In this document: piece by piece, positions 54,187 through 57,034 of the stretch
Position numbering within the stretch: the stretch's first letter is position 1
Layout: the number at the start of each line of letters is the position of its first letter
From: a virus
Virus record (IMG/VR): IMGVR_UViG_3300026290_000001
Strand: one strand, 5' to 3'
Length of the DNA: 64,000 nucleotides
Notes under the pieces: model-generated
Told to the model about the DNA's origin: nothing
The model's input: only the letters and a program-made list of their open reading frames with translations
Databases searched by the model: none
Made by a program: the position numbers and the translations under genes

Positions 54187-55014
54187 CTATTGATTAGATA
54201 GTAATTTTTCTTTATGTTCCCTTACACGTTTAATTGCTAAATTAAAATATTGATCATGTGGTTCACTCAGACTCCATTCAAAACCTATGTAATTTCTTTC
54301 AGTATTTAAACAAGCTATCGCTGTTGTGCCTGAACCTATGCAATTATCTAAGACTAAATCTCCTTCATTTGTATATGTTTTAATTAGATATTCAAATAAT
54401 TTTACTGGTTTTTGAGTGGGGTGTGGTAATTTTTCTTTAGAATTTGAATTAACTATAGGATTATATATTACAGTTGATGGATTTTTTAATTTTGCATTGT
54501 ACACATCATAACTTCTTCCAGCATAATCTGTATTAAAAACAATTTCATTATCTTTTCTTTTTGAGATAGAACTTCTAAAATTAATATTATTATTTTCTTG
54601 CATTTGTTTCATTCTTTCGCTTTTACGTTCTATCATTTGTCTATTATATGTATATTTATTTTTTGCAAATATTAATATATTTTCATGATATTTTAAATGT
54701 CTATATTTTGCATTTGCAAAATTACTCGCTCTATCTTTTTCCCATATTAGTTCTTCTTTAAACCAATCAATATTACTACAAATTAATTTGCTTGTAAATG
54801 GTTGACTTGCTGTTAATACTATAGCACCATTATCTTTTATAATTCTTTTATACTGTTCCCAAAGTTTATCAAAAGAAATTAAACTATCCCATTTTGCTAT
54901 TGTAGTTCCATAAGGTAGATCACATAAAATCATATCTATACTTTTATCAGGTAATAAACACATACCATTTTCACCAATACAATCTTCGTTATAAATAGTA
55001 TTTAATTTAATCAA
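54187..55014 (-). CDS. DNA methyltransferase (N6-adenine/N4-cytosine amino-MTase)
   Basis: Motif IV-like ILCDLPYGTT near N-terminus and SAM-binding LVLDNCIGSGTTAIA near C-terminus. Confidence 0.75.
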   Translation of the reverse strand: MIKLNTIYNEDCIGENGMCLLPDKSIDMILCDLPYGTTIAKWDSLISFDKLWEQYKRIIKDNGAIVLTASQPFTSKLICSNIDWFKEELIWEKDRASNFANAKYRHLKYHENILIFAKNKYTYNRQMIERKSERMKQMQENNNINFRSSISKRKDNEIVFNTDYAGRSYDVYNAKLKNPSTVIYNPIVNSNSKEKLPHPTQKPVKLFEYLIKTYTNEGDLVLDNCIGSGTTAIACLNTERNYIGFEWSLSEPHDQYFNLAIKRVREHKEKLLSNQ

Positions 55015-55089
55015 TTATGTATTATTCCTCCTATATTTATATTACTAAAATAATACTACGACTCAAAATTAAAAAATTATTTCTTACTC

Positions 55090-55413
55090 TTAATCTTTTT
55101 TCTCTTTCTTTTCCTTAGATTTTTTTGCCTTTTGTAATCTTTCTCCCATTTCTTTCTTTTGAGCCTCAGTTAACTTTTTCTTTTTGGTTGGTGCTCTAAA
55201 TGAAATCAACTTCTTATCACAAACAAATTCTTTTCCCACTAATTCATTATCTTCATCAAATTGATCACTAACATGCTGATATGATTCAGGATACTGTTTA
55301 CAAAGTTTATCCAGTTTGTTTAAATCTGCACGAATAAAAGTTATTATTTGTGCTTTTTTAGAATCTTCATCAATCCCTACGCAAGTATAACGCTCCATTT
55401 TTTCTAATGCCAT
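55090..55413 (-). CDS. hypothetical protein with Lys-rich C-terminal tail
   Basis: 107 aa, C-terminus KKKKLTEAQKKEMGERLQKAKKSKEKKEKKD. Confidence 0.3.
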   Translation of the reverse strand: MALEKMERYTCVGIDEDSKKAQIITFIRADLNKLDKLCKQYPESYQHVSDQFDEDNELVGKEFVCDKKLISFRAPTKKKKLTEAQKKEMGERLQKAKKSKEKKEKKD

Positions 55414-55454
55414 ATGTATAAATTCCTTCTTTCATTTTTATATTAATAAAATAA

Positions 55455-56204
55455 TTAAAATTCCACTAATCTATTTTTCGCTATTTCACAATATTTTTCT
55501 TCTAATTCAATTCCAATACATTTACGTTTAAGATTTCGTGCCGCCAATAAAGTTGTTCCTGAACCACAGGTAAAATCTAAAATAAGATCGTTTTCATTTG
55601 TGTATGTATTAATTAAATATTCCATTAATTCTAATGGTTTTTGTGTAGGATGAAATAAATTATTATTTGGATTTGCAAAATTTAATATATTTTTAGGATA
55701 ACCTTTAGCATTACTATTTCCAAAATGCTTTTCTTTCCCAAAAGTATATTCTCCATCCACTTTATTTTCTCTACTTGGTCTATTATTATTAAATTCTCCA
55801 TAAATTAACCCTTGCGGATTATAAATGCATTGATTTTTATAAAAAACTAAAACATCTTCTATTGCTCTCATTGGTTGTTTTTTAGCATTTAAATGACCAC
55901 TTGGTTTAGTTTTTATCCATTTCCAATCATATTTATATTCTTTAATATTACTAATTCTTAAAAAACTACTAAAAGGTTCTCCTCCAAACAATAATGTAGG
56001 TGTTGTATTTTTTGTTAATTTATGTAATCTATCCCACATGTCATTAAATTTGATAATTTCATCCCATTTACATTTAGTAGTACCGTATGGTGGGTCAGTA
56101 ATTATTGCATCAAATTTAATACCTTTCTCAATAATCTTATCCATTACCTCTAAACAATCACCTTGAAATAATCTTATGTATTCGTCTTTATAGTATAATT
56201 TCAA
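55455..56204 (-). CDS. DNA methyltransferase (amino-MTase), paralog of 56249-57034
   Basis: [10 protein letters not shown] motif and [14 protein letters not shown] SAM-binding motif; N- and C-termini near-identical to neighbour, central region differs. Confidence 0.8.
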   Translation of the reverse strand: [249 protein letters not shown]

Positions 56205-56248
56205 TTTATGTAAATATATCTCCTTTCATTTTTATATTAATAAAATAA

Positions 56249-57034
56249 TTAAAATTCCACTAATCTATTTTTCGCTATTTCACAATATTTTTCTTCTAAT
56301 TCAATTCCAATACATTTACGTTTAAGATTTCTTGCCGCTAACAATGTTGTCCCTGAACCACAGGTAAAATCTAAAATAAGTTCGTTTTCTTTTGTGTATG
56401 TATTAATAAGGTATTCTAATAGTTCAATTGGTTTTTGAGTCGGATGTAATTTTTTCCCTGACATACTAGCGTTGCTTAAAGTATAAATACTTGTTGGATG
56501 TCTATCTTTATATTCTTTATGCCCCAAGTCTTTTATGGTATGTCCTTCTCTTAATGTGCTATTTCTTGAACCATAAAATGTTTTATTAACTTTTTTTATA
56601 TCATCTCGTTTTGTTTTTTGAGGATAATAATTCATTTCATTACCTTTTGAGAAAACTGCTTTTGCTTTACTAAAAATTAAAATATTTTCATGTACTCTAC
56701 CTACTTGAAAATTCATCATTTGAAAATTAGATGGTTTTACTTTATCCCAAATAATTTCATATCTAAATAGTTGAGGATTACTCATAATTAAAGCACTCGT
56801 AAAAGGTTGAGAACCATTCAATACTATTGCACCTTTATCTTTGATTAATTGAGTAATTTTATCCCACATCTTATCAAAAGGAATTATCGTGTCCCATTTA
56901 CATGCTGTAGTACCATAAGGTGGATCAGTTATTATCGCATCAAATTCAATACCTTTCTCAATCAATTTATCCATCACTTCTAAACAGTCACCTTGAAACA
57001 ATCTTATGTATTCATCTTTATAGTATAATTTCAT
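56249..57034 (-). CDS. DNA methyltransferase (amino-MTase), paralog of 55455-56204
   Basis: [10 protein letters not shown] and [14 protein letters not shown] motifs; upstream/downstream non-coding sequence also duplicated. Confidence 0.8.
   Translation of the reverse strand: [261 protein letters not shown]

Follow-up and report, generated by a model that had tools for sequence, protein, structure and literature searches.

A tandem array of putative orphan phage DNA methyltransferases with conserved ends and exchanged centres

The 64,000-nt viral sequence IMGVR_UViG_3300026290_000001 (the window, in what follows) contains three genes for predicted DNA amino-methyltransferases (MTases), designated MT1, MT2 and MT3. 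MT2 and MT3 lie side by side and have strongly conserved ends and unrelated centres. Our analysis suggests that these genes probably encode orphan, self-protective phage MTases built on a modular scaffold, the centres of which have been diversified by recombination in the conserved gene ends. In related phages, the place of MT2 and MT3 is a slot between two small genes, orf61 and orf107, that was shown by sequence comparison to hold one, two or three cassettes with five types of centre.

All three open reading frames (ORFs) were found on the minus strand, exactly where an initial annotation made from the sequence alone had placed them: MT3 at 56249-57034 (261 aa; cassette a), MT2 at 55455-56204 (249 aa, TTG start; cassette c), and MT1 at 54187-55014 (275 aa). 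The description of the three genes as tandem holds for MT2 and MT3, but MT1 is set off from MT2 by the 107-aa ORF at 55090-55413. The Pfam family PF01555 (N6_N4_Mtase) matches the three proteins at 115-130 bits (130 for MT3, 115.5 for MT2, 117.8 for MT1), far above its gathering threshold of 26.7 bits. Motif IV is located near the N-terminus, being DPPY in MT3 and MT2 (aa 37-40 in both) and, as initially noted, DLPY in MT1; motif I is found about 35-55 residues from the C-terminus, as GSGTT in MT2 and MT3 (aa 226-230 in MT3) and within LDNCIGSGTT in MT1. The proteins thus follow the permuted motif order IV-VIII, target-recognition domain (TRD), X, I-III, the same as that described for M.BceJIV. 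In a phmmer search against the PDB, they matched DpnA/M1.HpyAVI, M.MboIIA, CcrM, M.BceJIV, and M.RsrI at E-values of 1e-10 to 1e-20, the alignments to M.MboIIA and M.RsrI covering both protein halves.

An AlphaFold model, built for MT3 only, had a mean predicted local distance difference test score (pLDDT) of 87.7 and a predicted template modelling (pTM) score of 0.86. Foldseek aligned it with M1.HpyAVI, CcrM, M.BceJIV, M.MboIIA, and M.RsrI (probability 1.0, TM-scores 0.6-0.8, E-values 1e-13 to 6e-17); Type III Mod subunits (EcoP15I, Mbo45V) were also among the matches. In the model, motif IV lies at the end of a strand (residues 31-36), with a low-confidence loop after it, and motifs X, I, II, and III lie within the last 65 residues. 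The amino-methyltransferase assignment is therefore borne out by the family match, by the positions of motifs IV and I, and by the fold of MT3. In beta-class MTases, DPPY rather than SPPY favours N6-adenine methylation. Most likely, judging from these features, MT1, MT2, and MT3 are stand-alone ("orphan") beta-class DNA amino-methyltransferases of the N6-adenine type. MT1, which is 42 % identical to MT3, belongs to a separate clade, where DLPY is present in 110 of the 150 best representatives of clusters formed at 50 % identity; by this distribution, the variant motif is the norm of the clade and not a defect. A literature search on the DLPY variant returned nothing, experimental data included. 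PADLOC and NCBIfam yielded nothing for the neighbouring genes and only sub-threshold generic matches to the MTases, with no equivalog-level match in NCBIfam, so that no specificity can be transferred to them from this source.

MT2 and MT3 are 55 % identical as proteins, and this identity is distributed very unevenly along the sequence (residues are given in MT3 numbering). The N-terminal "handle" with motif IV (residues 1-57; 56864-57034 in MT3, 56034-56204 in MT2) is 87.5 % identical in protein and 82.7 % in DNA, and 75-93 % identical in homologues that share the same ends. It is followed by a semi-conserved catalytic core with motifs V-VIII (residues 58-123; 56666-56863 in MT3, 55836-56033 in MT2; model strands 64-73, 90-102, and 113-121), in which identity falls to 34.8 % in protein and 59.1 % in DNA. 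In the hypervariable TRD (residues 124-196; 56447-56665 in MT3, 55653-55835 in MT2), only 12 residues are shared between the 73 aa of MT3 and the 61 aa of MT2, DNA identity being 51.6 %. The AlphaFold model shows long beta-hairpins here (141-154 and 168-178), occupying the position where TRDs of the beta class are inserted. Finally, the C-terminal handle with motifs X and I-III (residues 197-261 and the stop codon; 56249-56446 in MT3, 55455-55652 in MT2) is 93.9 % identical in protein and 91.4 % in DNA, and 80-94 % identical in the same-ends class.

The alignment of the two paralogues thus bounds the variable block by residues 1-57 on one side and by the last 65 residues on the other, with the centre as a whole only about 25 % identical, in agreement with the near-identical termini and differing centres reported initially. 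The centre had been taken for the likely target-recognition region; the exchanged block does include the TRD, but it is larger and also comprises the core with motifs V-VIII. "Swapped" is the right word for the centres of MT2 and MT3, as they are unrelated to each other and the closer relatives of each are found on foreign scaffolds. That the genes are identical copies created by a duplication artefact was rejected, the two proteins differing at 45 % of positions. A centre hypermutated in the manner of diversity-generating retroelements was rejected as well: the centres are unalignable, unequal in length, and have relatives of 60-85 % identity on foreign scaffolds.

The closest comparison is provided by a 138-kb ENA contig (L082), which contains the exact MT2 sequence and is 99.2-99.8 % identical to the window. 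It has three cassettes, in the order a-b-c, and the window has two, a-c. Cassettes a and c of L082 are identical to MT3 and MT2 at every nucleotide, including the flanks; the additional cassette b between them encodes 243 aa, and the indel by which the two arrays differ is a single 776-bp unit bounded by a perfect repeat of 133 nt. Cassette b, too, is a patchwork: it shares the first 112 nt with a and the upstream spacer with c, and has a centre of its own.

In more distant relatives, the order orf61 - cassette(s) - orf107 is kept. The slot of L081 contains one chimeric cassette with a c-type 5' end, an a-type centre, and a diverged 3' end; that of L005 contains one cassette with centre e, and that of L130 at least one, with centre d. 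The five centre types (a-e) are pairwise 25-41 % identical, the respective N-handles 81-98 % and C-handles 82-94 %. L081 and L005, contigs with one cassette each that extend across both flanks, independently support variation of the cassette copy number. Same-handle tandem arrays have so far been seen only in the window and L082, most relatives having a single same-handle gene that adjoins more divergent PF01555 genes. The left-hand flank, orf61 (57108-57293, minus strand, 61 aa), immediately precedes the first cassette in L081, L005, L130, and L082, with a conservation of 65-100 %. The right-hand flank, orf107 (55090-55413, minus strand), is a Lys-rich protein of 107 aa that matches phrog_1709 (unknown function) and immediately follows the last cassette in L081, L005, and L082, where it is 94-100 % conserved; it had no match in Pfam, PADLOC, NCBIfam, or the PDB.

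The same modularity was observed throughout the family. Candidate homologues were collected by a word-indexed search, which enriches for shared handles but does not create them. Among the 120 best database homologues of MT3, about two-thirds had ends 75-94 % identical to those of MT3 with TRDs only 15-35 % identical. The reverse combination was also found: in homologues P0002-P0016, the centres are 56-78 % identical to that of MT3, and the ends only 45-65 %. Likewise, the TRD of MT2 is 63-85 % identical to those of proteins whose C-handle is only 55-62 % identical (e.g., 85 % and 60 %, respectively, in P0121; 80 % and 59 % in P0129), and P0034 joins the centre of cassette b to a different C-terminus. 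Over 119 homologues, end and centre identities are uncorrelated (r = -0.004), 608 pairs combining ends of 85 % identity or more with centres of 30 % or less, and 162 pairs combining ends of 65 % or less with centres of 60 % or more. The 53 proteins at least 80 % identical to MT3 over both ends (the same-scaffold set) carry about 40 centre types. Scaffolds and centres have separate histories, and this requires recombination; it was thereby shown, at the level of sequence, that recombination has reassorted centres and scaffolds.

Among distant members, synonymous sites of the handles are near saturation, the fraction of identical codons being 0.68 vs. 0.56-0.59 expected from codon usage. By this measure, conservation of the handles among distant members appears to be at the protein level, DNA-level identity being confined to the cassettes of one array. 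Selection acting on handle DNA as recombination sites among distant members was rejected on the same ground.

Within the array, an exact-repeat scan revealed a 109-nt perfect direct repeat, one copy of which (56223-56331, upstream) covers the 3' end of MT3 and the other (55429-55537, downstream) the 3' end of MT2; each consists of the last 83 coding nucleotides of the gene and 26 nt 3' of it. If the 46 handle differences between the ends of MT2 and MT3 were randomly placed, a perfect run of 109 nt would be expected with P of about 1e-5; this improbability points to recent gene conversion as the process that homogenised the 3' ends of the cassettes. The duplicated non-coding DNA upstream of the two genes is shorter than the approximately 100 bp initially proposed, extending over about 45 nt: the spacer before MT2 is only 44 nt long and resembles the ~47 nt immediately upstream of MT3, with a match of about 82 %. 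This inter-cassette spacer (56205-56248, minus strand), which contains a GGAG ribosome-binding-like site, is identical to both inter-cassette spacers of L082.

The start sites used in the family are uncertain. Relatives P0018, P0025, and P0065 read the spacer sequence ATGAAAGGAG in frame, which adds about nine residues (MKGE.IYKLQ...). In the window, the copy of ATGAAAGGAG in the spacer at 56205-56248 is followed by a stop codon, and the MTases start with TTG or ATG about 15 nt past GGAG.

No inverted repeats join the cassettes, which are linked by direct repeats only; the three inverted repeats found in the window are all located elsewhere. An invertible shufflon was rejected, as the linking repeats are direct and all cassettes are complete ORFs. 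Phase variation by simple-sequence repeats was also rejected, since Tandem Repeats Finder detected no array within MT1, MT2, or MT3.

The AT-rich window (~28 % GC) encodes tailed-phage proteins, including terminase, portal, a 2014-aa tape-measure protein, a YomG_N tail protein, an amidase endolysin, and HNH proteins. L082 genes match YonG_N and an MrpR-like recombinase domain, and relatives of the window phage also match YorO (Pfam); judging from these matches, the phage is a large SPbeta-like temperate phage. The provenance of the homologues points to Clostridium-type hosts and to biogas and digester samples, so the phage that carries the MT genes most likely lives in anaerobic digesters on Clostridium-type hosts. 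No match to the locus was found by megablast among 50,697 GenBank phage records, and tblastn found only relatives of less than 50 % identity, annotated plainly as "DNA methylase". When GTDB genomes were scanned with the handle peptides, only three relatives aligned over most of the query at 49 % identity or more, in metagenome-assembled genomes (MAGs) of Clostridium, Butyrivibrio, and Muribaculaceae; there was an additional patchy match of 51 % in one Bacillota MAG. By this sampling, the conserved-handle family appears to reside mainly in uncultured phages.

The repertoire of the phage is not limited to the three genes of the window. The 99.5-kb IMG/VR viral contig 3300009671_000358 is 100 % identical to the window over 6850 nt (window positions 56307-49458). 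The other end of this contig (L004; IMGVR_UViG_3300009671_000358, 88289-99574) is identical to a locus from a second sample (L011; IMGVR_UViG_3300009647_000134, 12234-24965), where eight PF01555 genes occupy 12.7 kb. At least seven of the eight lie within the ~11 kb of L004, and one gene of this island is a further member of the conserved-handle family. Added to the three genes of the window, they give a predicted total of at least ten beta-class MTases per phage. Relatives carry three to five PF01555 genes, plus Dam-class and Mom-like genes.

Every neighbouring ORF between 48.4 and 60.6 kb was searched for a restriction enzyme using Pfam, PHROGs, PADLOC, NCBIfam, and PDB sequence searches, and none was found; no Res-like gene was found among the neighbours of the MTases either. 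The initial statement that no cognate restriction endonuclease is evident thus agrees with four HMM (hidden Markov model) libraries and the PDB searches, one candidate remaining, namely a nuclease-domain protein of the PD-(D/E)xK type (51966-53210, minus strand, 414 aa; PF06054 CoiA_nuc, E-value 3e-27). This CoiA-like gene is the only nuclease-domain gene near the MTases that lacks marks of a homing endonuclease; its product had no match in PADLOC, NCBIfam, or the PDB. It adjoins a gene for a 934-aa protein (49199-52003, minus strand) that matches phrog_8308 (unknown function) with an E-value of 8e-166, is conserved in L082, and had no match in Pfam, NCBIfam, or PADLOC.

Directly upstream of the slot, in the same gene string, is orf253 (57378-58139, minus strand, 253 aa), encoding a RepE-like dual winged-helix protein. 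Foldseek aligned its AlphaFold2 model (pLDDT 86.4) with RepE54 and other iteron-binding plasmid initiators (E-value 8e-7, probability 1.0, TM-scores 0.42-0.49). Homologues of orf253, with 50-93 % identity, are widespread in related phages and Clostridium genomes. Its role as a hidden restriction enzyme was rejected because of the RepE-like fold and its absence from L005, which keeps a cassette; judging from the model, orf253 may be the replication initiator of the phage. Three copies of the palindrome ACACCAAAATGGTG (58386-58481) occur in the 250 nt of intergenic DNA that precede orf64 and the Rep-like gene; they overlap a promoter-like site (TTGACA-18-AAAAAT). In the window, ACACCAAAATGGTG has 6 strand-matches vs. 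0.44 expected, five of them within 58386-58481, and this cluster could represent a candidate operator or origin iterons at the start of the leftward string of genes to which the MTases belong. The position of the Rep-like gene and the ACACCAAAATGGTG cluster before the MTases fits controlled, replication-linked expression. Promoter and terminator scans performed no better than on shuffled sequence (39 sites vs. 40.6 expected).

An HNH endonuclease gene (58603-59526, minus strand) sits in the place of a GIY-YIG gene in the syntenic contig L130 (5619-6476); it looks like a homing endonuclease gene, and the HNH/GIY-YIG swap suggests homing-endonuclease turnover. Another HNH gene is located at 13105-14397. 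Three tyrosine-recombinase-like genes were found in the window, all on the minus strand (59714-60592, 27164-28201, and 5113-6117). The product of the first resembles XerC/D/XerA at scores under the curated cut-offs, and its identical copy in L082 weakly matches the SPbeta master-repressor domain MrpR_C_cat; one of the other two is inside the tail-gene region. At the left end of the window (914-2002, plus strand, opposite to most genes), there are nucleotide-metabolism accessory genes for a deoxynucleotide monophosphate kinase-like protein and a 5'-deoxynucleotidase (NT5C)-like protein.

The initial annotation had suggested anti-restriction protection covering several specificities, and those parts of this interpretation that could be examined computationally were borne out. 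If the genes do encode self-protective orphan MTases, the enzymes would each methylate a different short motif in the phage genome as it replicates, and host restriction enzymes of matching specificity would then be unable to cut the phage DNA. The scaffold (the N-terminal 57 aa with motif IV and the C-terminal ~65 aa with motifs X and I-III) would carry an interchangeable central block, formed by motifs V-VIII and the TRD, that would set the specificity. Unequal homologous recombination between the 109-133-nt perfect repeats would, we infer, add and remove cassettes, and this gain and loss could tune the repertoire of protective methylation to the restriction systems encountered.

Several points weigh against this reading. 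Enzyme activity, the modified base, and the target motifs are all deduced from sequence, as is the anti-restriction role, which we infer from the genomic context; DPPY favours N6-methyladenine without proving it. Near-saturation of synonymous sites in the handles means that DNA homology cannot explain the movement of centres between distant scaffolds. The CoiA-like gene, only about 1 kb downstream of MT1, is a candidate restriction enzyme. In addition, all the sequences are metagenome assemblies, and the difference between the window and L082 falls exactly in a perfect repeat, where an assembler working with k below 133 could skip a cassette; contig 3300009671_000358 starts inside the 109-nt repeat, in the 3' handle of MT3 (window position 56307). 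Assemblies of these phages will probably be broken up or wrongly joined at such arrays, and cassette counts from short-read contigs need care.

These assembly-related observations, together with the perfect repeats of 109-133 nt shared by the cassettes, would also be expected if strain variants with one cassette each had been falsely joined in tandem, or if a repeat unit had been skipped, so that the contrast of two and three cassettes were an artefact. We consider this decidedly improbable. The perfect repeats, at most 133 nt long, are shorter than the k-mer length of 141 to which the contig names of L081 and L082 (k141) point, making the order a-b-c resolvable; the junction of C-handle, spacer, and N-handle is specific, would not be made by an allelic bubble, and recurs in three assemblies (the window, L082, and the IMG/VR contig); and the divergence of the cassettes excludes duplicated reads. 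The order a-c of the window itself, and hence the difference between two and three cassettes, is provable only from reads. A hidden restriction-modification (R-M) or toxin-like system, in which an unrecognised endonuclease (the CoiA-like protein or a small ORF) partners one of the MTases, seems improbable too. Restriction enzymes can escape sequence detection, those of Type II often doing so, and several small ORFs nearby are without annotation, as would suit such a system; yet none of the neighbours is matched by a restriction-enzyme or defence-system model, the predicted fold of orf253 is RepE-like, and the HNH gene behaves as a homing endonuclease gene. Moreover, orf61, orf107, and orf253 are conserved while the adjoining centre changes (a, d, or e), a change incompatible with a cognate nuclease of fixed specificity.

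Methylation might instead control replication, packaging, or expression, in the manner of Dam of phage P1, CcrM of Caulobacter, or "roving" prophage MTases. The location of the MT genes directly downstream of the Rep-like initiator and the palindrome cluster would suit such regulators, CcrM and M.BceJIV, both structural relatives, are orphan enzymes with regulatory roles (PMC11380664), and many phage orphan MTases may regulate replication cycles (reviewed in PMC12707154). Regulation predicts, however, a fixed specificity, and the observed turnover is rapid, five centres being found in a single slot and about 40 on the same scaffold; the copy number differs between near-identical phages, and the presence of at least ten such genes per phage completes a pattern that fits an arms race, so that a regulatory role is unlikely. 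Still less can be said for MT3 and MT2 as an obligate M1/M2 pair of the Type IIS style, each methylating one strand of a single asymmetric site, which we regard as very improbable. The genes are adjacent, with a common scaffold and different TRDs, and the asymmetric-site enzymes M.MboIIA and M1.HpyAVI are among the nearest structures, but the cassettes occur independently of each other (a alone in L081, a-b-c in L082, single d in L130 and e in L005), and the nearest relatives of each centre are on separate scaffolds.

Two further, related ideas are speculative and, on present grounds, doubtful. The handles may be kept for reasons beyond catalysis. Solved beta-class MTases act as dimers, both subunits reading DNA (PMC11380664); co-expressed same-scaffold cassettes might form heterodimers, in which case n cassettes could specify up to n(n+1)/2 composite sites and provide a combinatorial anti-restriction repertoire. 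The array could also be a bet-hedging generator of methylation types, the direct repeats recombining often enough within one phage population. Both ideas are left open by the conservation of the handle proteins at about 90 % despite synonymous saturation, by the tandem co-orientation of the cassettes in one gene string, and by the differences in copy number between phages that are 99 % identical.

The action of phage orphan MTases against R-M systems is already known, as is the exchange of TRDs in Type I, Type III, and Type IIG enzymes. If the reading as recombining, self-protective orphan MTases holds, the locus adds a clean natural case of small stand-alone beta-class enzymes in which specificity modules have been shuffled while the scaffold stays fixed; it also adds units of scaffold and module stacked in tandem, an array length that differs between almost identical phages, and at least ten such genes per phage. 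We found no description of same-scaffold beta-class cassette arrays of phages in the literature, our coverage of which was incomplete. If the centres set the specificity, about 40 of them on one scaffold of ~120 residues, with known natural breakpoints, would form a panel for studying how beta-class TRDs read DNA, and the same panel could guide the engineering of MTases with chosen specificity. From the content of the arrays, one could read out the restriction landscape met by phages in anaerobic-digester communities.

Among characterized enzymes, M1.HpyAVI (5HFJ), CcrM (6PBD), M.BceJIV (8URK), M.MboIIA (1G60), and M.RsrI (1EG2) have the same fold and motif order as the MT proteins. Identity to them is only 17-27 %, and the TRDs are unrelated, hence no specificity can be transferred; none of these solved enzymes has been described in a cassette array. 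Phage orphan MTases have been regarded as protective "Trojan horse" enzymes (PMC12707154). According to that review, which cites Trautner et al., several TRDs on a conserved scaffold enable Bacillus phages of the SPbeta group (SPR, phi3T, rho11s) to counter many host restriction systems. On that account, the present locus is similar in combining a temperate phage of the SPbeta type with multiple TRDs on a conserved catalytic scaffold; unlike those C5-cytosine MTases with several TRDs per polypeptide, the MT genes belong to the amino class (PF01555) and have one TRD each, the whole gene being repeated.

The closest parallel to the distribution of variation is found in the mod genes of Type III systems, which have conserved ends, a hypervariable centre, and mosaic alleles, recombination beside the variable region reassorting the TRDs (Bayliss et al., 2006; PMC1557822). 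The MT proteins resemble Mod (modA of Haemophilus influenzae and Neisseria) in being beta-class members of PF01555 with conserved termini and a recombined central TRD. The MT locus differs in having neither a res gene nor a simple-sequence repeat tract, and in consisting of phage-borne orphan genes of ~250 aa arranged side by side in an array of variable copy number, whereas mod variants are alternative alleles at a single-copy locus. Finally, as in the hsdS shufflons of Type I systems (SpnD39III of S. pneumoniae; PMC4948785), repeats flank the TRD modules and a tyrosine recombinase gene is located near the locus. The hsdS shufflons operate by site-specific inversion between inverted repeats, with silent partial hsdS genes serving one R-M system, whereas the repeats of the MT array are direct and its genes complete; the outcome at the MT array would be gain or loss of genes, and at the hsdS shufflon it is switching.

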